A DNA stretch of 64,000 nucleotides from the NCBI RefSeq assembly GCF_049554935.1, contig NZ_CP186926.1, positions 1,088,001 to 1,152,000 on the forward strand. Direction: 5' to 3'. The translations under genes were made by a program, and so were the position numbers. This DNA is from Methanocaldococcus indicus (lineage in GTDB: Archaea; AGJL01; Methanococci; Methanococcales; Methanocaldococcaceae). The stretch's first letter is position 1, and every line of letters starts with the position of its first letter. This document shows positions 40,781 through 51,897 of the stretch, piece by piece. Under the pieces are notes generated by a model. The model worked only from the letters and a program-made list of their open reading frames with translations. It did no database searches and had not been told where the DNA came from.

Positions 40781-41480
40781 ATGCTAACCACACTTAAAGA
40801 ATTACTCGTTAATGGTTTAAATACTTTAGGTATAGCCAATTCGGATAACTTGGTAGATTACTGCTTGGTTAGAACTTTAACCGAGATAAAGACAATTAAA
40901 GCAATATCTGGAGAGATTTTAGAAATTCATCGAACAACCATAATCAAAAAACTTCAAAAGCTATCGGAAATTGAGAACTGCTTTTATACTCATCTACTAA
41001 ACCTTCCCAACATTTTAAATAATCGTAAATTTAAATTTTCAATAATAATTGATTCAACCTTATTGAGAAGATATAGTAAAAATGTATTTGTTTGGCAGTT
41101 CTATTAGATACAATTACGTAGAAAATCATAAAAAATTATATCAAGAACAAATAAACTGCTGTATTTTTAATAAAAAAAAGGATTATACGATATACACCAC
41201 AATAAAACCAAGGAATATTAAATCGACTGATGTATATTTAAGAATTATAGAATCAATATCTAAAATTATTAAGAAAACGGTCGTTGGTGATGGTTTTGTA
41301 ACAATAAAGAAAATTTTAAGGAGATGTAATGAATTGGGAATCAATTATATTGGTAGAATCAGAAAAAACATAAAAATTGAAGTTTTCGGTAAAGATGTTA
41401 AAATAGAAGATATGTTTAAAAAGGACTTCAACGAAAATAAAGCTAAATTTTGTGATTTTCTTTACATAAATTATTTATAA
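40781..41480 (+). pseudogene. Frameshifted, truncated DDE transposase (IS701/IS4-like)
   Basis: Two overlapping frames; IIIDSTLL (first Asp), VVGDG (second Asp), NYIGRIRKN; no C-terminal Glu region. Confidence 0.7.
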
Positions 41481-41671
41481 TACCTAAAATAAAGTTATAT
41501 AACGTTACTGTATCATACTTCCTATATCTTCTATTGTATCTTTTCCAGTATCCGGGTCTTTTTTTGCATTTTTCTTCACTCATATTTTTTATTACTTCAT
41601 TATACATTTTTATGTTTTTTCGACAACCTTACACATATAGAAATTATTTTTTGTTATTTTTTGGTGAGAGT

Positions 41672-42604
41672 ATGAAAGTTGGAATTACAGCAATAGTTCC
41701 ACCTGAGATTATTTACGCAACAAATCATACACCTTTAGATTTAAACAACTTTGTTCCACAATCTAATATAACTCCAAAAAATAAACTATGTGCCTGGACT
41801 GCTACATGGAGGGACTTAATTTTAGAGGATAAAATTAAAATTGATAAATTAATTGTTGTTGCAGGTGGAGATTGCCAAAATTCCCTTGTTGATGCTGAAA
41901 AGATAGAATTAAAGAAAAAAATTCCAACACATTATTTCTTTTATCAATTTGGAGATAAAAAGCACTTTGAAAATGAAATAAAAAAACTTATTAATTTTTT
42001 AGGAGGAGATGTTGATAAAGATATTTTAAGAGAAGTTTACAAAATAAAGAAACTTGTAAAAAAAGTCGATGAATTATGCTACAAAGACAAAATAAATGGG
42101 AAAGATGCGTTTTATACTATAATCTCTGCAAGCGATTTAAAAGGAAATCCAGACGTATATAAAAAAGAAATCAATAATTTATTAAACAAAGATGAAAATG
42201 TCGAATATAGTCATAGAATTGCTATAATAGGAATTCCTCCAATTTTTATAGATTTTTATGAATATTTAAATGAAATAAATGTACATTGTGTTTATAATGA
42301 GCTACCTTATGAGTTTATAAGAATGGGAGGATATTCAATAAAGAGTATTGTAGATACATATTCAACATACACATTTGCTAACCATATAAATAAAAGGATA
42401 AAGATTATAAAGAGAGAGCTAAAAAAAAGAAAGGTCGATGGAGTAATTCATTATACCCAAATGTGTTGCCATCATAAATTGGAAGATGAAATTCTCAGAG
42501 AATTTATTGATTATCCCATGCTAACAATAGAGGGGGATATTCCTCAAAAAACACCTGAACAAACAAAGTTAAGGATAGAAGCATTTATAGAATTGTTGGG
42601 ATAG
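41672..42604 (+). CDS. 2-hydroxyacyl-CoA dehydratase (HgdB/FldB D-component)-like Fe-S protein
   Basis: PPEII, KLCAW, GDC, DGVIHYTQMCC, PMLTIEGD...QTKLRIEAFIE; ATG at 41672 follows GGTGAG. Confidence 0.85.
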   Translation: MKVGITAIVPPEIIYATNHTPLDLNNFVPQSNITPKNKLCAWTATWRDLILEDKIKIDKLIVVAGGDCQNSLVDAEKIELKKKIPTHYFFYQFGDKKHFENEIKKLINFLGGDVDKDILREVYKIKKLVKKVDELCYKDKINGKDAFYTIISASDLKGNPDVYKKEINNLLNKDENVEYSHRIAIIGIPPIFIDFYEYLNEINVHCVYNELPYEFIRMGGYSIKSIVDTYSTYTFANHINKRIKIIKRELKKRKVDGVIHYTQMCCHHKLEDEILREFIDYPMLTIEGDIPQKTPEQTKLRIEAFIELLG

Positions 42605-42606
42605 CC

Positions 42607-43287
42607 ATGATAGGTATTGATGTTGGTTCAACAAACATAAAAATCGTAGACGGGAAGAGTTTTAAAAAATATCCAATAATTAAATTAAATGAAATATTAG
42701 AAAAATATAATAATGAAGAATCTTTTGCGACTGGATATTTTAGAAAGAGATTTAAAAATTACATAACTGAAATTACTGCTGCTATATATGGAATTGATAA
42801 AGATGTTGAAGTTATAATCGATATTGGGGGACAAGATACAAAGATAATAAACACAAAAACATTAGAGTTTATAATGAATGATAAATGTGGAGCAGGGACT
42901 GGATTATTTTTACAAACTATAGCAATGTATTTAAATGTTCCTATCGAAGATTTTGGAAAATATTATTCAAAAAATCCTCTAAACTTGAATAATACTTGTG
43001 CTGTTTTTTCAATTTCAGAAATAATTAACTACCTCGTGAGTGGCTATACTATTAAAGATATTATAGCATCTGTAAATTACACTATAGCAAAGAAAATAGC
43101 TAATATTAATCCCTATGAATGTGAAACTCTTACTCTAATTGGTGGAGTTGCAGAAAATAAAGCATTTGTGAGATATTTTAAAGAAATTACTGAGAAAGAA
43201 GTTTATGTTCCTAAAAATCCGCAATTTATAAATGCAATAGGGGCGAGAAAATATGGAATTAAATACTCAACAAAAAATCATCTTTGA
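42607..43287 (+). CDS. Acyl-CoA dehydratase activase (HgdC/BadF-type ASKHA ATPase, Fe-S)
   Basis: GIDVGST, ATGY, DIGGQDTK, NDKCGAGTG, CAVF, GGVA.N. Confidence 0.92.
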   Translation: MIGIDVGSTNIKIVDGKSFKKYPIIKLNEILEKYNNEESFATGYFRKRFKNYITEITAAIYGIDKDVEVIIDIGGQDTKIINTKTLEFIMNDKCGAGTGLFLQTIAMYLNVPIEDFGKYYSKNPLNLNNTCAVFSISEIINYLVSGYTIKDIIASVNYTIAKKIANINPYECETLTLIGGVAENKAFVRYFKEITEKEVYVPKNPQFINAIGARKYGIKYSTKNHL

Positions 43288-43828
43288 AATTTACGATTTA
43301 TACAAAAAATTTGAATTAATTGAAAGTAATAACAAATGTAAAAAGCTATCTAAAAGAATAGAAAAAATTAAAAATGGAATTGTAGTTAAAGATATTTATG
43401 ATGTTAATTATGTTGATAGAGTTCAGGAGATTTTATTAAATTACAGAGAAATTTGGGGTTTTATTTATAAATCATCAATAAAACAGTGGATTGCAACATC
43501 TAAAACTATAAATGTAGCTGGAATTTTTTATAAGGATGATTTAATTGGAGTTATGGTTTATGGAGAGAGACCAAATTATTTGAAAATTAATTACATTGCA
43601 GTAGATAAAAAATTTAAAGATAAATCTCTTGGAGGATATTTTATTCAATTTTTAGAGAAAAAAGCTAAAAAATTAAAAAAGAAAAAAATATATGCAGAAG
43701 TTCCAAAAATAAATGAGAATGGACTAAGATTTTTTATAAAAAATAGATTTGTAATTGAAGGAATTTTAAAAAATCATACAAGAAGGGACAAAGATTTAGT
43801 TTTAATGGCTAAATATTTAGAGGGATAA
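43253..43828 (+). CDS. GNAT family acetyltransferase
   Basis: IAVDKKFKDKSLG (motif A-like), N..GLRFF.K.RF..EG.L (motif B). Confidence 0.8.
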   Translation: MELNTQQKIIFEIYDLYKKFELIESNNKCKKLSKRIEKIKNGIVVKDIYDVNYVDRVQEILLNYREIWGFIYKSSIKQWIATSKTINVAGIFYKDDLIGVMVYGERPNYLKINYIAVDKKFKDKSLGGYFIQFLEKKAKKLKKKKIYAEVPKINENGLRFFIKNRFVIEGILKNHTRRDKDLVLMAKYLEG

Positions 43829-43829
43829 A

Positions 43830-44756
43830 ATGGTGGAATTTTTTGCATCGTTGACCATTTCTCCAGGACAAATTAGAAAAATGGTTGAACTTTTAAAGAA
43901 ACACGAACCAAAAAAATGGGCTTTTGAAAATGTGATTTTTACACCGATAGTTTCATCAGAAGGGACTATAAAAGAAATTAAAAATTTAAAAAGAAAATAT
44001 AAAACAACTATTATGTTTGATAGTGGTGGTTATTATGTTCAACAGGGAAAGTTTGAAATATATCAACTGTTTTCCTTTTTAAGGGAATTTTATGAAAACA
44101 ATAAATGGGGAGATTGGTATGTTCTACCAGATTCTCCACCAGTGTCATCTGATAGTATAAATATTGCTTGGGGAAAAGTCCATGAGACAGTTTATTTTGC
44201 AAAGAGTTTTGCAGAAGAATTTAATGGAAAAATAGAGAAAAAATTTGTTCCTGTTGTTCAGGGCATTAATGAAGAACAAATCTATTATTGTATCAAAAAT
44301 TATGCTGATTTGAATGTTAAAAGAATAGGTTTTGGAAGTTTTGGAACTTGTGGAAAGAATAATCAGATTAATCGACTAACAAAAGAAAGTTTAGAAAACT
44401 TAAAATATTTGTCTATGTTAGCAAGAGATTATGGATTTGAGTTACATGCCTTTGGTATTGGTGGAGGAAGTTCTGTAAATAAAATTAAAGACTATGTTGA
44501 TAGTTTTGATAGTAGTGGTTGGGATAAAGCTGGAGGATTTGGAGACATATTTTTTCCAGGTTCGAGAACTATTAACATAACTGGAAAATCTGGAAGAATA
44601 TCTTCAAAAAATTACATAGGTTATGAAGATATGATTGAAAATCTTAGAAATGGGCATAGGTGTTATTTTTGTAAAAATATTGCCAATCTAAAAAAATATA
44701 AGATATATCGGTCATTACATAATATAATAGTGCTTTATGAAATGGTGAAAGAATGA
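43830..44756 (+). CDS. tRNA-guanine transglycosylase-like protein (DpdA-like, probable DNA base-exchange enzyme)
   Basis: MFDSGGY, VLPD, VPVVQG, LHAFG, DSFDSS and Zn site HxCxxC...LHN; lacks arcTGT C-terminal/PUA domains. Confidence 0.8.
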   Translation: MVEFFASLTISPGQIRKMVELLKKHEPKKWAFENVIFTPIVSSEGTIKEIKNLKRKYKTTIMFDSGGYYVQQGKFEIYQLFSFLREFYENNKWGDWYVLPDSPPVSSDSINIAWGKVHETVYFAKSFAEEFNGKIEKKFVPVVQGINEEQIYYCIKNYADLNVKRIGFGSFGTCGKNNQINRLTKESLENLKYLSMLARDYGFELHAFGIGGGSSVNKIKDYVDSFDSSGWDKAGGFGDIFFPGSRTINITGKSGRISSKNYIGYEDMIENLRNGHRCYFCKNIANLKKYKIYRSLHNIIVLYEMVKE

Positions 44757-45493
44757 GTAGGGGATATCACATTCAACATAATGCAAAACCATCAATTATT
44801 AGAGAATTTATTGAATACAGTCCAAATGCTAAAAAATCAGAACTTAAAGAAGTGTTTTTAAATATAAAACCCAGCATTATAGATGATAATTATACAATTA
44901 TGAATAAACTTATTAATAGAGAAGATAAAAATGAGATTGAAAACCTTTTGAAAATGGATGAGGTAATATTTAATAATTATCTTCATTATAAGCTCTATTC
45001 ATCATCTTTACCAATTGGATGGTCATATAGAAGTGTAATTCATATATTATTTGAAGAATATAAGGATAAAAAAATAAATTACAACGATATTGAACAAAAA
45101 GTTAAAGATAAAGCATTTAATGAAGGTTTGGGAAGTATATCATTTAGTAGCAATAGTGTTCGTGGAGCAATTAATTTTATTAAATCTTTATACCCTTCTC
45201 CAATAGATGAAAATAACATATTCAACCTCAGAGATTATTGTCAACCACATCTCTTATTATGGGGAGTGGATTATCTTTATAAAAAACAATGGGGAGAGGA
45301 ATATGGTTCATTAATGCTTTTGGATAGTGAAAAAATTGAAGAACTTTGTAAATTTTGTTTAATTGATGAAGATGTGTTGGACAATCATTTAAAGGAACTT
45401 GGATTTATGTATGATTTTGTGGAAATATCGATAAAGGCATTTGGGAAGTATATAAGATTAAAAAGAGCTTGGAGTTTTAATGATATCTTATAA
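44753..45493 (+). CDS. Hypothetical protein, possibly BrxA-like winged-helix component
   Basis: ATGA overlap with the upstream gene; no catalytic motif recognised; call is positional. Confidence 0.45.
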   Translation: MSRGYHIQHNAKPSIIREFIEYSPNAKKSELKEVFLNIKPSIIDDNYTIMNKLINREDKNEIENLLKMDEVIFNNYLHYKLYSSSLPIGWSYRSVIHILFEEYKDKKINYNDIEQKVKDKAFNEGLGSISFSSNSVRGAINFIKSLYPSPIDENNIFNLRDYCQPHLLLWGVDYLYKKQWGEEYGSLMLLDSEKIEELCKFCLIDEDVLDNHLKELGFMYDFVEISIKAFGKYIRLKRAWSFNDIL

Positions 45494-45505
45494 AAGGGGA
45501 AAATA

Positions 45506-46015
45506 ATGGATTATATTGTACTAATAAACTATATCAAAAATAATTATTCTTTTAATTGGCTAACAAATAGTCAGAAAAATGCGTATAATATATTAAAAGA
45601 GTATCTTATTTATGATGATGTTATTAATCTTTATGGAAAAAGAGGAGTAGGGAAAACATTTTTAGGATGGGTATTTGCAAAAAATAACAACTTTATATAT
45701 TTTGAAAATGAAGATGCATTTAGAAATTATAAAGTAAAGACAAAAATAAATGCAATTATTGATAATGGCTCATTGAAGGATGGAAGGGAGATTAGAAGGA
45801 TGGTCTCCTTAAAAACCAATAAAGTAATTTACATTTCAAGAAAGAAAATTTTAGATTATGGTATAGAGTTAAAGTTAGATTTAAATGATGTAGAACATGT
45901 TTTAAATAATCTATCTCCAATTATTGGAGAAAATATAAATACTAACATTCAAAATTTGAAAATAAATGATATCGATTTATGGAACATTTTTAAGGGGAGG
46001 GTATATGAATATTAG
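45506..46015 (+). CDS. Small P-loop NTPase (BrxF/BrxB-like)
   Basis: Walker A GKRGVGKT, Walker B-like AIIDN; 169 aa; precedes the large ATPase. Confidence 0.6.
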   Translation: MDYIVLINYIKNNYSFNWLTNSQKNAYNILKEYLIYDDVINLYGKRGVGKTFLGWVFAKNNNFIYFENEDAFRNYKVKTKINAIIDNGSLKDGREIRRMVSLKTNKVIYISRKKILDYGIELKLDLNDVEHVLNNLSPIIGENINTNIQNLKINDIDLWNIFKGRVYEY

Positions 46016-49000
46016 TGTATTAGAATTTATAATAAATAAAAGTCCAGTAGTAGATACACAATCAGCCGAAAATTTAATAAATGAACCAGATTCAGTTGCA
46101 GATAAGTATGAAAATCATTTAAAAACCTATATAAAAGTTGATAATGAAGAATTTGATAAGCGATTTGTGAGAGAAATTAAAAAAGGAAAAACTGTAAAAG
46201 GTTATATTTCCGCTCCTTTTGGTTATGGAAAGACAAGTAAAGCATTAAGTTTATGGGAATATTGTAAAAAGAATAACATCTTTTCCATCCCTCCATTTAA
46301 ATTTGATGGAAAGCTTGATACAATAATGGACGCAGTTTATGGATGGACTAGATATGTTTATAAATACAAATATCCTGAATATGTGGACAAAATTGAAAAA
46401 ATTTATAGAAAATATAAAACACTAAGTATAGAAAAAGAAATAGATGAACTGGCAAAAAAAGAACACTTAACGAGAGATGAAGCAAAAAGAATAATTAATA
46501 ATTTCATAGAAAAAGGTAAACTAATTATATCAATGACACCAAAGGACTTGATGAATTTTTTAAAAGAGATGAATGAGATTATAAAAAAACATTTTGATGG
46601 ATTGGCAATTTTTGTAGATGAAGTGCAAGGAATAAAAAATATGGAAACTATTAATAATTTAAGAAACTTTATTTTCGAACTTAGTATTAACAATATAGGA
46701 TTAGGTATTTTATTCATAATTCCTGATTATCAAGAAGAGGACTTAAATATAAGAGCAGGAGATTTAATTGACAGATTACGAAAAGATGGATTTTACTTAA
46801 ATTTAGTAAATATATACAATGTAGATTTTGCAGAAAAATTATGGAAAAAATATGGAGAACTTTTACAATTTAATCCTTATGATATTATAACAAAGGACTG
46901 TTTAAGAAGTATTGGAGAAATATCTTCAAGAGATGATTTAGGAAAAGGTCCAAGAACTGTCATAGGGGCATTTAAATGTGCTTGTATGAAATATAAAGAA
47001 AAATTTGAGCCATACAATGTGTTTGATTTTGTTAATGATATTTTAAATGGTAAAATCGCATACATACAACAAAAATATTTAGATGCTTTAAATGAGGGGC
47101 TATCATTGAAGAAAGTTAATTCCGAAGAAAAAAGAAATGTTATTAAATTATTAGGGGCATTCCCGAGAGGAATAAGTGAAGAAATGATAAAAAAGTATGG
47201 CTTATATGATGAGTATGAAGAACTATCAGATGCTTATTATGGAACTGAGATTGTTTATGCACTTGAGGGATATACTCTAAGAGGATTATTAGACGAAACA
47301 CCAGATGGCTATGTCGAACAGCATATAAGGAAATTTAGAAGTGTATTTGATGAATCTTGGGAGGACGAGATGATTAATGCTTTTATAAATTATATATTAC
47401 CTGAAATTTTCCCAAAGAAAAAAGGATCTCAGATTGTAGGGTGGAGATTTGATAAAAAATACCCAATAAGTAATGGATATTATCACCAACTAACTGGGAC
47501 ATTTAATCCAAAATATCCTTTTAGAATTGTTGGGATATATTCTTTGAGGAAAGAACTTAAAGAAAAAGAAATGACGCTTATTAAAAATTTGGTTAATAAT
47601 GAGTCACCAGATGTTGAATTTAAATTTATATTAGATAAAAACATAGAAAATAACGATTTGATAATTAACTATAAAAATGGAGAAGTTATCTTTAAATTTG
47701 ATGTTTTAAAGAAAGTTGGAGAAGATAAATTACCTGGAGATTTGAAAAAACTTCAACAATATGTTAAACCACAAGAAGTTACGCCAATGTTTATGTTATG
47801 TCTTTTAGATTACTTTGACAAAATAAAAGAAAAAGAAGATGAATATGCAAAGTATGGGGGTGAAATTAATGCATTAAGGTCTATTCTTGTAAGATATTTA
47901 AAAAGATTTTTGTTTTCTGATGAGTTGGCAGAAAAATACGAGTTAAGGAAAAGACAAGAAAAAATAGTCGAAGAAATATTTAATAGAATTTGTGAATATA
48001 AATTTAAAGATTATAGAACATTAATTCATTCTCCAAACTGGCATAGAGATTTAGAGAGATATAGAATTTTATTGGAATCACTTTCAATTTCAAAAAGAAG
48101 GGGTGAAGAATTTGAAACTACTAAAAAAGAACTAGTTTCTAAATTGACTGGAAGTAAGAATCCAAGTGTTGCAGGATTCGATGATGAATGTAAAAATGGA
48201 AAATGGAAGGACTTGATATATTTGGAATATTGGGGTAAAGGAGAAAAAATTAAGGTTAAATTAAAAAAGCATCAACTTGAAGAAAGGATATTAAAAGAAT
48301 TCATTGAAAAATGGACACAACCAATAAGTATTGATGTAATAATTAATTATGGAATTAATTTGGGATACATTCCAGAAGAAGTCGAAGAAATTTTAAAAAT
48401 CCTTGAAAGTAGGAAATACATTGAAATTGATAAAGGATATATATTCAAACTTGAGGAGATAACAAACACTGATGTTTTAAATAAATTTGATGAAATTGAA
48501 AAACTTGCGAAGAAAGTTGCCAATCTTTATAAAAAATATGGAAAAGATATCCCAAACATCCCCATAAAATTATCTAAAAAAGATGAAATTAAGAACCAAA
48601 ATGATTCTGATTTATTATACAAAGAATTAGAACTTTTGGAAAGTTGGGAAAAAACATTAAAAGGATATCATAAGATGATTAAAAATGAAATAGATAAAAA
48701 TAAGGAAGAACTACTAAATGAAATCATAAAAACAAGGGAAAAAACAGAAGGACTAAAAAAGAAAATAGATGACATAAAAGAGGATATTATAAAGACCCAT
48801 TATTCATTAGGGGGAATTGTTAAGCATTTAGAAGAACAAATAAAGATAACAAAAAAGAAATGTAATAAGATATCGAGAGATTTATTGGAATTGAGAGAAA
48901 AAATAAACTCTTCAAGAGATATTGAAACTCTTGCCGAGATTTTAAATATTGCAAATAAAGAAATGGAACGTTTAAGAAAAGAACATACTGACATTAATGA

Positions 49001-49841
49001 AAAATATAATAAATTTAAATCTTGGTTAGCAATTCTTAGAAAATTAGAAGAATTACATGAAAAAATAGATTCCTATAAGGATTATATTGATATTGATGAA
49101 GAATATGAAAGATTTAACGAACTAATAGACGAAATAATAACTAACTTTGCAAGAGATGGGTGGGATTATCTAAACATGGATAAGGACGTTGAAAAAGATA
49201 TAGAATTAATAGAAAAAGACATAAAGAAAAAAGAAAGTAATTTAAGAAACGAATTTAATAAGATTCAAGATGAAATAAAAACAAAAATGGTTATCTTATC
49301 TCAAACACTAAAATCGTTAGATGTTTCTCCGTATTCATACAGAGAAGCATTTAGTATTGAAGATAGAGAGACAGCATACCAAAATCTTGTAAGAAATGTG
49401 AGGTTGTATCTCCAAGAAATTTTAAACAAGTTACATGACTATATTATATCATTAAAAACTGAAGTAGAGGTTAAATTGGGTAATAATGAAAATTATATAA
49501 CTATACTAAAGGAAATAGAAGATAAATTGGACAATATAAATATAGAAATTATAGAAAAAAATAATTTAATAACTGCTGTTGAAGAAATAAAATCAAATAT
49601 ACTTGATATATGGGAAGAAATAGAGAAGACTAGAAAAGAAATAAAAAGAGAAATTATTGAAAAAAATAAATCTGGTAAGTCAGAAGAAGAAATAAAAATA
49701 ATAGAATTATTAAACAAATATGGTGAAATTTCCATTAAAGAACTTACAAAACATTTAAACATGCCTATCGAGGGGACGTTAAAATGTCTATTGAATATGG
49801 AGAATATAGAAATAATTGTAAGGAAAAGATGGAAAAAATAA
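46005..49841 (+). CDS. Large P-loop ATPase with C-terminal coiled coil (BrxC/PglY-like)
   Basis: Walker A APFGYGKT, Walker B IFVDE, DRL arginine-finger-like, GPR sensor-like; long coiled coil; ATG at 46005 follows GGGGAGG. Confidence 0.7.
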   Translation: MNISVLEFIINKSPVVDTQSAENLINEPDSVADKYENHLKTYIKVDNEEFDKRFVREIKKGKTVKGYISAPFGYGKTSKALSLWEYCKKNNIFSIPPFKFDGKLDTIMDAVYGWTRYVYKYKYPEYVDKIEKIYRKYKTLSIEKEIDELAKKEHLTRDEAKRIINNFIEKGKLIISMTPKDLMNFLKEMNEIIKKHFDGLAIFVDEVQGIKNMETINNLRNFIFELSINNIGLGILFIIPDYQEEDLNIRAGDLIDRLRKDGFYLNLVNIYNVDFAEKLWKKYGELLQFNPYDIITKDCLRSIGEISSRDDLGKGPRTVIGAFKCACMKYKEKFEPYNVFDFVNDILNGKIAYIQQKYLDALNEGLSLKKVNSEEKRNVIKLLGAFPRGISEEMIKKYGLYDEYEELSDAYYGTEIVYALEGYTLRGLLDETPDGYVEQHIRKFRSVFDESWEDEMINAFINYILPEIFPKKKGSQIVGWRFDKKYPISNGYYHQLTGTFNPKYPFRIVGIYSLRKELKEKEMTLIKNLVNNESPDVEFKFILDKNIENNDLIINYKNGEVIFKFDVLKKVGEDKLPGDLKKLQQYVKPQEVTPMFMLCLLDYFDKIKEKEDEYAKYGGEINALRSILVRYLKRFLFSDELAEKYELRKRQEKIVEEIFNRICEYKFKDYRTLIHSPNWHRDLERYRILLESLSISKRRGEEFETTKKELVSKLTGSKNPSVAGFDDECKNGKWKDLIYLEYWGKGEKIKVKLKKHQLEERILKEFIEKWTQPISIDVIINYGINLGYIPEEVEEILKILESRKYIEIDKGYIFKLEEITNTDVLNKFDEIEKLAKKVANLYKKYGKDIPNIPIKLSKKDEIKNQNDSDLLYKELELLESWEKTLKGYHKMIKNEIDKNKEELLNEIIKTREKTEGLKKKIDDIKEDIIKTHYSLGGIVKHLEEQIKITKKKCNKISRDLLELREKINSSRDIETLAEILNIANKEMERLRKEHTDINEKYNKFKSWLAILRKLEELHEKIDSYKDYIDIDEEYERFNELIDEIITNFARDGWDYLNMDKDVEKDIELIEKDIKKKESNLRNEFNKIQDEIKTKMVILSQTLKSLDVSPYSYREAFSIEDRETAYQNLVRNVRLYLQEILNKLHDYIISLKTEVEVKLGNNENYITILKEIEDKLDNINIEIIEKNNLITAVEEIKSNILDIWEEIEKTRKEIKREIIEKNKSGKSEEEIKIIELLNKYGEISIKELTKHLNMPIEGTLKCLLNMENIEIIVRKRWKK

Positions 49842-50734
49842 AGACTCCATGTTACTTAAAAATAAAACATAAACTTTCACTTCTATTTTCTGATTTTGAA
49901 GACATCTCCTATAATGATTTCTGGTTAATGGTAGACAACCCAAATAAAAAACTTCCTCAGAAAAAATTTGTTATAACCGATAAATTTGATTATAGATTAC
50001 CTATTTATGAAATAAATCATAATCCTTTTACACCAGAATTAAACAAAATTATTAGTGAAAAATATCATCTAATTGAAAAATATGTTAAGACACAAAGAGA
50101 TATTAAAGATTATATCGTTGATTATGTTAATACCAAAACTCCAAAAACTGTTATTTTGTATCTTATTGATGGACTATCGTATTGGGACTATATAAATGCA
50201 AGCATAAAATATAATGTTGAACCAATATTTGTCAATGGAAAAACAACAACCGAAAATGGGCTTAAAAATATTGTTTATGGAAAAAATGGCATACCTATTG
50301 CAAAAGAACTTTATAAGTTTGGATATAAAGGCTACGGACAAACTTATTGGAATAGAAAAAATAAATTAACAGATATTTTGTTTAGATACATAAGTGAAAA
50401 GAACATTTTTTATTATGATGAAAACATACACGACATAATAGTTAAAAATAAACAATCAAAGAAATATATTCAAATTTATAAAATTGGATTAGATGATGAT
50501 GCACATAAGTTAAGAGAAGTTAGTAAAAAAAGTATAATTAATAAAATAAAAGAAATATTTGAAAATATAAACATCTTAAGAGATATTCTAAATCAAACTA
50601 ATCAGCCTTATCTTATAGTAATTACTGCTGACCATGGTATAAAGTGGGATTTTACAAAAAAATATAGAAAAGGTTCTCATGGAAACATTTCATTTGAGGA
50701 GTGTTTTGTGCCTTTAATTATAATTGAGGGGTAG
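49829..50734 (+). CDS. PglZ-like alkaline-phosphatase-superfamily protein (core domain only)
   Basis: LIDGL, KTTT, DDDAH, ITADHG, SHG.IS.EE..VP motifs in PglZ order. Confidence 0.82.
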   Translation: MEKIKTPCYLKIKHKLSLLFSDFEDISYNDFWLMVDNPNKKLPQKKFVITDKFDYRLPIYEINHNPFTPELNKIISEKYHLIEKYVKTQRDIKDYIVDYVNTKTPKTVILYLIDGLSYWDYINASIKYNVEPIFVNGKTTTENGLKNIVYGKNGIPIAKELYKFGYKGYGQTYWNRKNKLTDILFRYISEKNIFYYDENIHDIIVKNKQSKKYIQIYKIGLDDDAHKLREVSKKSIINKIKEIFENINILRDILNQTNQPYLIVITADHGIKWDFTKKYRKGSHGNISFEECFVPLIIIEG

Positions 50735-50736
50735 CT

Positions 50737-51897
50737 ATGTTATTTATTGGAAGAGAAAAACTAAAAGACAGATTAGGAGATGATGTGTATATAGATGCTT
50801 CAAAATCTCATGCAATTTTTATTTGTGGTAAAAGAGGTAGTGGAAAAAGTTATACTTTAGGTGTTTTAGTTGAAGAACTTCAAGAAAAATACTCCGAGTA
50901 TCTAAAAATTATTATCGACCCAATGGGGATATTTTGGACTATGGTAGAGCCAAATGAAGAACAGGAAGAAGAACTTTGGGATTGGGATTTATATCCAGAA
51001 AGATATCCTGTTAAGTTAATAGTCCCTGGGGAAATAGAGGAAAGATTTGACGAAGATGTTATAAAAGAAATGGAAAATAGGGGAGTAGAATTTAAAAAAC
51101 TTCTTTTGAATCCTTCTGATATCTCAGCAGAAGGATGGTGTGATTTATTCAATTTAAATATAAACGAAATTATGGGAATTGCTTTGTATAGGGCAATTGA
51201 TAATATTGAAAAAGATTTTTTCACAATAGATGATATTATTTATGAGGTTGAGATGGATACAAAATCAAAAGAATCTACAAAAGAAGCATTAATAAATCGT
51301 CTAAACATGGCAAAAAAGTGGGGAATTTTTTCAGATGAATACATTCCAATAGAAAATATTTTTGAAAAAAATTCAATAAATGTTATTGATTTAAGTGTTA
51401 TTGAAAGTGGAAGATATGGGTTAAGAGATTTGATTGTATCAATAATTGCAAAATACTTATTTAATCAACGATTGAAAGCAAGAAAAAAAGAAATGTTAAA
51501 TTTACAATCAAAAATGCCAAAAGTTTGGCTGTTTATTGACGAAGCACATAATTTTATTCCTTCTGGGAAATCAACATTATCAAAAGAAATTCTAATAAGA
51601 TGGGCAAAGGAAGGACGACAGCCTGGGTTAAATTTAGTTATAGCTACTCAACAACCATCAGCAATTGACAATGAAGTTTTAAGTCAATGTGATATAATCT
51701 TTGCTCATAAAGTGACTAATAGAGAAGATATAAATGCATTAAATAAGCTCAATCAAGAGTATATGGGAAAGGAACTAAAAGTATATATTAAAGATTTAAA
51801 TAAAGGAGAATGTGTTTTTATTGATGATGAAAAAGAATTCTTAAAAATTATAAAAATAAGAACAAGAAAAAGTAAACATGGAGGAGGAGAAAAGTAA
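50737..51897 (+). CDS. HerA/FtsK-family ATPase (DUF87)
   Basis: H..I.GKRGSGKSYT, IIDP.G, FIDEAHNF, EGR, ATQQP. Confidence 0.9.
   Translation: MLFIGREKLKDRLGDDVYIDASKSHAIFICGKRGSGKSYTLGVLVEELQEKYSEYLKIIIDPMGIFWTMVEPNEEQEEELWDWDLYPERYPVKLIVPGEIEERFDEDVIKEMENRGVEFKKLLLNPSDISAEGWCDLFNLNINEIMGIALYRAIDNIEKDFFTIDDIIYEVEMDTKSKESTKEALINRLNMAKKWGIFSDEYIPIENIFEKNSINVIDLSVIESGRYGLRDLIVSIIAKYLFNQRLKARKKEMLNLQSKMPKVWLFIDEAHNFIPSGKSTLSKEILIRWAKEGRQPGLNLVIATQQPSAIDNEVLSQCDIIFAHKVTNREDINALNKLNQEYMGKELKVYIKDLNKGECVFIDDEKEFLKIIKIRTRKSKHGGGEK

Follow-up and report, generated by a model that had tools for sequence, protein, structure and literature searches.

An HgdB-like protein and its activase in archaeal BRC loci: a candidate preQ0 reductase beside a defence system with a transglycosylase gene

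The main text describing the defence system BRC ('BREX-Related Capture'; Nucleic Acids Res 2026, PMC12839542) reports it in 45 taxa and lists seven components: PglZ, a DUF6079/BrxC-like protein, a STAND NTPase/BrxB-like protein, a DUF4007/BrxA-like protein, HerA, a GNAT acyltransferase and a tRNA-guanine transglycosylase (TGT). In that text the GNAT is occasionally fused to the TGT, and the authors propose that the two together mark self DNA. Our search of the literature on BRC, DUF6079 and DUF4007 returned this one BRC paper and otherwise only papers on BREX. Here we analyse a stretch of 64,000 nucleotides (the window) from the methanogenic Methanococcales archaeon Methanocaldococcus indicus (contig NZ_CP186926.1, positions 1,088,001 to 1,152,000; genome 1.44 Mb, ~27% G+C), in which an island of nine closely packed genes, all on the + strand, lies at positions 41672-51897 between housekeeping genes. 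Its first three genes encode an HgdB-like Fe-S protein, an HgdC-like activase and a GNAT and run straight into a gene for a TGT-like enzyme, as the first-pass annotation of the window had described: strand, Pfam matches and the junctions calculated from the open reading frame (ORF) coordinates agree with that description, with a 2-bp gap between HgdB-like and activase genes, a 35-bp overlap between activase and GNAT and a 1-bp gap between GNAT and TGT-like gene.

The best explanation for this trio is that it forms the leading part of a BRC system in its archaeal form. BRC itself, GNAT-TGT module included, is already published, as the main text of PMC12839542 makes clear; what appear to be new are the archaeal add-on of HgdB-like protein and activase (the pair) and a sister clade of this pair, as a candidate non-orthologous QueF. 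The coupling of the trio to the TGT-like gene is real, and a reductive step on a 7-deazaguanine side chain is our leading hypothesis for what the pair contributes. In its specific form, to which we give a probability of roughly 0.45, the pair would be an ATP-driven reductase that converts preQ0 (nitrile) into preQ1 (aminomethyl) in place of QueF and so feeds DNA marking by the GNAT and the TGT-like enzyme in archaeal BRC.

The pair and the GNAT in archaeal BRC loci

Genes three to nine of the island, from GNAT through HerA, fit the published BRC in order and size. Three of the components (HerA, GNAT and TGT) could be identified by family or fold; the other four gave no Pfam, NCBIfam or PADLOC match over cut-off, and PADLOC matched HerA only among the island proteins. 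The nine-gene cassette was found in the same order in 4 further Methanococcales genomes (5/61 relatives including the window's own), at other chromosomal places; the arrangement of these genes is not due to chance.

The presence of each gene was followed in 80 TGT-like loci taken from one-genome-per-species contigs, using a phmmer screen with the island proteins: homologues were obtained for the TGT-like protein in 80 loci, the DUF4007-like protein in 77, the BrxC-like protein in 72, the STAND protein in 54, the PglZ-like protein in 49, HerA in 48 and the HgdB-like protein and activase in 3 each. The DUF4007-like homologue comes after the TGT-like gene in 77/80 loci, and the PglZ-like homologue, in the 49/80 loci that have it, always precedes HerA. 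In 24/80 loci the GNAT forms an N-terminal fusion with the TGT-like protein; in 31/80 it is a separate gene, these being 29 loci in which it stands just 5' of the TGT-like gene or just 3' of HerA, plus L010 and L011, whose GNAT is of the window type. Overall the GNAT is fused or adjacent in 55/80 loci, with some of the remaining 25 contigs ending early, and the fusions keep the same order as the separate genes of the window. The comparison thus shows the GNAT, at the level of sequence, to be a standard BRC component that is predicted to act together with the TGT-like enzyme.

The window's GNAT matches PF00583 with 30.4 bits (cut-off 20.7). GNAT enzymes bind the pyrophosphate of acyl-CoA through a Q/R-x-x-G-x-G/A motif; the window protein reads KDKSLGG, by eye, where the fused homologues read RVRGVGK, and has no strict match to this motif. 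The TGT-like protein is matched by Pfam with E values of about 2e-3, both PF01702 (17.6 bits, cut-off 26.3) and PF23859 (17.3 bits, cut-off 27) remaining below their thresholds. Its predicted model (pLDDT 89.5) retrieved tRNA-guanine transglycosylases for all of the top 50 Foldseek matches at a probability of 1.00, the best being the TGT of Z. mobilis with TMq 0.65-0.70, and the family profile found DpdA in the PDB (7ui4_A) at E 2.8e-4. Invariant in the family are D64, D101, D227 and a Zn site of the form H276-x-C278-x-x-C281...H297; D227 lies in an 'FDS' motif whose counterparts are 'IDS' in DpdA and 'FDS' in arcTGT, and is assigned a catalytic role as in TGT enzymes.

The pair has a different distribution from the GNAT. 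It is missing from 77/80 loci, and the three loci that carry it are the only archaeal ones, from Methanocaldococcus, Methanothermococcus and Methanosarcina. The Methanosarcina loci (L012 in genome G061; L160 in G240) have the order GNAT, TGT-like, ..., HerA, HgdB-like, activase: here the pair closes the locus instead of opening it, and is still attached. Among 301 Methanosarcinia genomes the TGT-like gene is present in only 2, each with the pair within 9 kb of it, which brings the pair to 7/7 archaeal genomes with the TGT-like gene, in two classes, at two locus positions and with tight or overlapping junctions. Both arrangements also recur among 80 metagenome loci of the HgdB-like gene, 6 of which are in BRC context. 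By comparison of sequences the pair is thus shown as a conserved two-gene unit and, among BRC loci, an accessory specific to archaea. The first-pass annotation had suggested testing whether all three genes travel with the TGT-like gene: this holds for the GNAT and, within archaea, for the pair, and fails for the pair across the loci as a whole. The counter-observation it had named, that TGT-PglZ loci usually lack the trio, was formally made for HgdB-like protein and activase and not for the GNAT, with a pattern that is archaea-specific rather than random. The functional tie to the TGT-like gene that it had drawn is upheld by the many GNAT fusions and by the attachment of the pair in every archaeal case, and the trio is very probably a functional part of archaeal BRC.

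As to its identity, the HgdB-like protein belongs to the HGD-D superfamily, with PF06050 matching at 100.2 bits (cut-off 28.4) over residues 8-309. The predicted model (pLDDT 92.9) was matched by Foldseek with TMq 0.80-0.83 and a probability of 1.00 to HadC (3o3m_B, 0.82), BzdNO (8s02_B, 0.83) and DCCP (7yzm_A, 0.81), with 6eno also in this range, and sequence matches in the PDB are weak: 3o3m_B, the 2-hydroxyisocaproyl-CoA dehydratase beta subunit, at E 3.5e-8 and 6eno at E 1.3e-6. The NCBIfam model double_cubane (NF040772) reached 42.1 bits, for a cut-off of 350, over the C-terminal 70 residues only. The first-pass annotation had pointed to cysteines in KLCAW, GDC and QMCC, and C40, C68 and C266 (the second Cys of QMCC) indeed proved invariant in 22 relatives; C265 is not, and many polar residues are invariant in the same comparison. 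The activase matches PF01869 at 90.8 bits (cut-off 31.5) and TIGR00241 'acyl-CoA dehydratase activase' at 136.1 bits (cut-off 125.4), and its ASKHA motifs DxGS, DIGGQD and GG together with C94 and C131, the cysteines of the bridging cluster, are invariant in 14 sequences. We propose that the HgdB-like protein is the catalytic component of an ATP-driven reductase. One HGD-D gene was counted in the island, in each of the 4 related cassettes and in each of 20 Methanosarcinia loci, which departs from the alpha/beta pairs of 2-hydroxyacyl-CoA dehydratases; as the locus has only one such subunit, the protein probably acts as a homodimer.

The longest ORF of the HgdB-like gene begins at a TTG 46 codons upstream of ATG 41672 (window 41534-41671). 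The short form starting at 41672 is likely to be the real gene, because the copy in the Methanothermococcus BRC locus begins at an ATG matching this position and GGTGA stands just 5' of the window's ATG. A separate housekeeping HGD-D/activase pair is also present in the window's genome, 34% and 39% identical to the island pair, and in the tree this paralogue lies a branch length of ~10 from the island-type HgdB-like proteins. QueC stands tail-to-tail with this housekeeping pair (HGD-D at 415.8 bits; G000:C1:160663-163389; L159:5661-8396), an adjacency that had looked like one more link to the pathway; it is absent from genomes G001 and G023 and was set aside as probable chance.

Queuosine genes beside relatives of the pair

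The main case for a 7-deazaguanine substrate comes from relatives of the pair outside BRC. More than 120 proteins are related to the HgdB-like protein of the island type with 47-53% identity, from sources named ANME-2, Methanosarcinales, Methanoperedens and Thermoplasmata, and the BRC-linked and queuosine-linked proteins form one subfamily in which they are ~50% identical. The queuosine-linked group is one side of a branch in the tree (support 77/95), and the Methanosarcina BRC copy falls outside it: as it is not nested in the queuosine clade, the pair has moved along with archaeal BRC and is no recent acquisition from host genomes.

According to the sections of PMC8204110 that bear on these genes, some archaea obtained the queuosine genes Tgt, QueA and QueH from bacteria; QueF is not mentioned there. 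Among the 301 Methanosarcinia genomes, relatives of the pair (~50% identity) are found in 47 and QueA in 42, all 42 being pair-positive, and QueA is found in 0/254 genomes lacking the pair. The five pair-positive genomes in which QueA stays under the threshold are the 2 BRC carriers, G319 (in which a fragment of QueA lies at the end of a contig) and two assemblies of 1.6 Mb. QueH, QueG and QueF were followed in a subset of 80 genomes made up of all 47 pair-positives and 33 negatives taken at even steps through the sample: QueH is present in 44/47 pair-positive versus 0/33 pair-negative genomes, QueG is over cut-off in 0/80 and QueF (PF14489) in only 2/80. Since the other steps are accounted for by QueC, bacterial-type TGT (bTGT), QueA and QueH, the conversion of preQ0 to preQ1 is the only step of the queuosine pathway in these archaea that is unfilled. 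Our literature search returned nothing that links the Hgd/Bcr-type family to this conversion, and the source of preQ1 in these archaea seems not to have been addressed before.

Gene neighbourhoods point the same way. In 20 Methanosarcinia loci of the queuosine-linked type, none of which contains BRC genes, the activase follows the HgdB-like gene in 19/20, and a queuosine or 7-deazaguanine pathway gene is found within 9.5 kb in 14/20: FolE2/MptA directly upstream in 9, divergent bacterial-type TGT plus QueA in 2 and QueH 3-4 kb away in 3. The neighbours of the HgdB-like gene in the 80 metagenome loci are the activase (69), FolE2 directly upstream (10), an adjacent, divergent QueA (9), an adjacent bacterial TGT (6) and QueH (1), next to the 6 cases of BRC context. 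The subfamily of the pair therefore likely works in 7-deazaguanine/queuosine metabolism, and the suggestion of a reduced 7-deazaguanine side chain, made by the first-pass annotation for the window, gains independent comparative support from the co-occurrence of the sister clade with queuosine genes where QueF is missing. The further possibility that the FolE2 gene beside the pair is a second, queuosine-specific copy was rejected, as FolE2 is single copy in 5/5 pair-positive and 5/5 pair-negative genomes.

Just past the queuosine-linked pair, two more genes recur in opposite orientation, one for a PNPOx_N-type FMN-binding protein of ~137 aa (19/80 metagenome loci) and one for an unannotated protein of ~120 aa (18/80). 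Examples of such loci are L167 (3979-4488), L127, L128 and L130. They could be electron-transfer partners or mere synteny.

The BRC hosts themselves differ in their supply of these bases. QueC is present in 5/5 Methanococcales BRC genomes (the window's and 4 relatives), in which neither QueF (PF14489) nor QueA was found, and the Methanosarcina BRC carriers G061 and G240 are without QueA, QueF and QueH: archaea offer preQ0 and not preQ1. Among 50 bacterial BRC hosts, bacterial tRNA TGT is over cut-off in 49/50, so that bacterial hosts already handle preQ1 or queuine. The simpler notion that every bacterial host would have QueF, or QueC, was abandoned, QueF being over cut-off in 19/50 and QueC strong in 19/50.

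A possible route to a marked base, and its alternatives

From these comparisons the following mechanism can be proposed. The activase would use ATP to drive a low-potential electron into a [4Fe-4S] centre held by the three Cys of the HgdB-like protein, which would then act as reductase on a 7-deazaguanine. Most likely this would be preQ0, with its nitrile turned into the aminomethyl group of preQ1, the job performed by QueF in bacteria. Because archaea make preQ0 for archaeosine and have no QueF, archaeal BRC would in this manner bring its own preQ1 supply. The TGT-like enzyme, which in the most economical reading requires a preQ1-type base, would swap guanine in host DNA for it, serving as the self mark. 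Either ahead of this exchange or following it, the primary amine so formed may be acylated by the GNAT, which is the weakest step; reduction may precede incorporation, with the free base as substrate, or act on a base that is part of nucleic acid. Taking the parts separately, the chances that nitrile reduction is the step carried out by the pair are about even, and it is doubtful that the GNAT acylates the product of the pair. The fullest version, in which the pair would be the first ATP-dependent Fe-S nitrile reductase and its preQ1, once acylated by the GNAT, would be placed in the genomic DNA of methanogens with BRC by the TGT-like enzyme as a hitherto undescribed N-acyl-aminomethyl-7-deazaguanine mark of self versus non-self DNA, is unlikely.

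Several points weigh against reading the pair as a preQ0 reductase that supplies BRC. The evidence for preQ0 as substrate consists of co-occurrence and neighbourhood only, and the known members of the superfamily use CoA thioesters or small molecules, none of them being known to act on a nucleobase or a nitrile. The genomes compared are kin, meaning that the counts of 42/42 and 0/254 overstate the independent support, and the QueA-positive genomes G258 and G325 have both QueF and the pair. The FolE2 neighbour is the housekeeping MptA, whose adjacency could equally reflect pterin metabolism. The queuosine-linked loci are without GNAT: co-location in archaeal BRC is all that ties the GNAT to the product of the pair. 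In bacteria, 31/50 BRC hosts are without QueF over cut-off, 31/50 are without strong QueC and 16/22 hosts with a separate GNAT have neither; given this scarcity, most bacterial BRC systems work without home-made preQ0 or preQ1, and salvage would be needed if a 7-deazaguanine is used at all. The idea that BRC makes use of a 7-deazaguanine is rescued by presumed salvage (bTGT in 49/50) only.

Some of these observations would also fit a pair that does belong to 7-deazaguanine/queuosine metabolism and archaeal BRC and has a job other than nitrile reduction, for example the reduction or dehydration of a pterin-like intermediate derived from GTP, the reduction of another group of the base after its entry into tRNA or DNA, or the reductive activation of a partner enzyme. 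The most frequent neighbour (9/20 and 10/80 loci) is FolE2/MptA, the only housekeeping GTP cyclohydrolase, the PNPOx-like flavin protein is found downstream in 19/80 loci, and both the presence of QueF besides the pair in G258 and G325 and its absence from 31/50 bacterial hosts speak for such a role. We nevertheless consider it rather unlikely: the QueF step is the only one missing when QueC, bTGT, QueA and QueH are accounted for, and a pair found in just 47/301 Methanosarcinia genomes has no core function in pterin metabolism, which all methanogens need. A dehydratase-type pair could instead make an unusual (enoyl or reduced) acyl-CoA, from which the GNAT would move the acyl group to a base, DNA or protein, as the first-pass annotation had also suggested; the best sequence and fold matches are indeed the 2-hydroxyisocaproyl-CoA dehydratase beta subunit and benzoyl-CoA reductase subunits, GNATs are established users of acyl-CoA, and HgdB-like, activase and GNAT genes are contiguous in Methanococcales. 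This explanation has become improbable, however, since there is one HGD-D subunit only, CoA-ester dehydratases being alpha/beta pairs, and Pfam revealed no CoA-transferase or CoA-ligase in the island. In addition, the Methanosarcina pair lies at the end of the locus opposite to the GNAT, the pairs of 20 non-BRC genome loci and 74 non-BRC metagenome loci have no GNAT match and track QueA/QueH, and 53 bacterial BRC loci have a GNAT without the pair.

The last alternative, likewise raised at the outset, is that the pair is unrelated cargo, a hitch-hiker that is functionally unconnected to its defence neighbours. Defence islands are known to gather unrelated genes, the remains of a transposase directly precede the pair in the window and 77/80 homologous loci do without the pair. 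Against this, unrelated cargo would hardly accompany the TGT-like gene in all 7 archaeal genomes that have it, from two classes and at two locus positions, with tight or overlapping junctions; moreover, BRC-linked pairs are lineages of their own and not copies of host genes, and their sister clade is tied to TGT-pathway genes. The cargo explanation is thus very improbable. With the preQ0 reductase reading there is now a concrete candidate for the preQ1 source of archaea that bear queuosine genes. If it is true, the Hgd/Bcr/DCCP superfamily would extend from CoA esters and small molecules to the nitrile of a nucleobase, which would be of interest for nitrile-to-amine biocatalysis; BRC would need a specific 7-deazaguanine, of the preQ1 type and not preQ0, with the archaeal forms carrying their own supply module; and the reading would point to which DNA nucleoside to look for.

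The island, its variants and the systems it resembles

Genes around the island (Table 1) include DUF2118, DUF749, HcyBio and HMG-CoA reductase, with LeuA-like and VWA housekeeping genes farther to the left, and its flanks differ from those of the related Methanococcales cassettes.

Table 1. Features of the island and its left border (positions of the window).
Feature	Coordinates	Strand	Evidence
Broken DDE transposase, two overlapping ORF fragments; left border of the island	40781..41480	+	PF01609 DDE_Tnp_1, E 1.5e-4 on 41082-41480
HgdB-like Fe-S protein, single HGD-D subunit, 310 aa	41672..42604	+	PF06050, 100.2 bits
HgdC/BcrAD-type ATP-dependent electron activase, 226 aa	42607..43287	+	PF01869, 90.8 bits; TIGR00241, 136.1 bits
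GNAT acyltransferase, 191 aa; GNAT component of BRC	43253..43828	+	PF00583, 30.4 bits
TGT/DpdA-like transglycosylase, 308 aa	43830..44756	+	Predicted fold and profile matches
246-aa protein; by position, DUF4007/BrxA-like BRC component	44753..45493	+	No Pfam match; component named in PMC12839542
169-aa P-loop protein; by position, STAND NTPase/BrxB-like	45506..46015	+	Weak AAA matches only; component list of PMC12839542
1291-aa ATPase; by size and position, BrxC-like/DUF6079	45966..49841	+	No Pfam family over cut-off; component list of PMC12839542
316-aa protein; by position, short PglZ-like	49784..50734	+	No Pfam or PADLOC match; name from PMC12839542 and the first-pass annotation only
HerA/FtsK-type ATPase	50737..51897	+	PF01935 DUF87, 51.9 bits; PADLOC HerA, E 1.5e-28, and mad8, E 2.8e-24

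Three variations of BRC loci were also seen. In 59/80 loci a related protein of 750-1011 aa is encoded upstream of the TGT-like gene, mostly on the same strand (directly upstream in L013:6960-9995, L014:244-3195 and L015:768-3020), with RNA-polymerase alpha-CTD repeats, sigma-70 regions 2 and 4 and HARE-HTH as its domains; it is outside the seven components given in the main text of PMC12839542 and absent from the archaeal loci, which have the HgdB-like/activase pair instead. In the Methanothermococcus BRC locus the DUF4007-like gene is separated from the STAND gene by a four-gene insert (L011:11684-16028; 749, 215, 195 and 290 aa), whose fourth product belongs to the RAMP superfamily of CRISPR-associated type (PF03787, E 2.9e-19). 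Five Chloroflexota loci (L030, L033, L044, L048 and L049) have two tandem sets of DUF4007-like and BrxC-like genes after the TGT-like gene and no PglZ-like or HerA match within the 10 kb examined, and may represent a variant architecture.

Of the systems described to date, the island is closest to BRC, whose gene set and order, as given in the main text of PMC12839542, it shares downstream of the pair: GNAT, TGT, DUF4007/BrxA-like, STAND/BrxB-like, BrxC-like/DUF6079, short PglZ and HerA. The HgdB-like/activase add-on of the archaeal loci is not described in that main text, in which the terms dehydratase, hydroxyglutaryl, activase, HGD, Bcr, BadF and ASKHA do not occur, although its supplementary tables may list such neighbours. 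The Dpd system (DpdA/DpdB/DpdC) likewise places a TGT-family enzyme in a restriction-modification-like island, and its DpdA (7ui4_A) is the best PDB sequence match of the TGT-like protein; BRC differs in being without DpdB and DpdC, as stated in the main text of PMC12839542, and in having BREX-like proteins and HerA as partners.

For the pair, the HadBC/HadI and HgdAB/HgdC systems share the fold (3o3m_B, TMq 0.82), the three-Cys cluster site and an adjacent ATP-dependent activase with bridging-cluster Cys, whereas the island protein is a single subunit with ~19% identity and stands in a context of nucleobase and tRNA modification instead of amino-acid fermentation. The relationship to QueF would be one of functional analogy: the pair is proposed for the same reaction and position in the pathway, QueF being a T-fold NADPH enzyme without homology to the pair and its family PF14489 having no match among the island proteins. 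DCCP with DCCP-R (6eno, 7yzm) has the same single-subunit type of fold (TMq 0.80-0.81, 21% identity); the three invariant Cys of the HgdB-like protein are fewer than a double cubane needs, and the activase of the island is a single ASKHA protein of 226 aa. DCCP reduces small substrates with multiple bonds (acetylene, azide and hydrazine) at the expense of ATP, which makes the reduction of a nitrile by its relative in the archaeal BRC loci chemically plausible.

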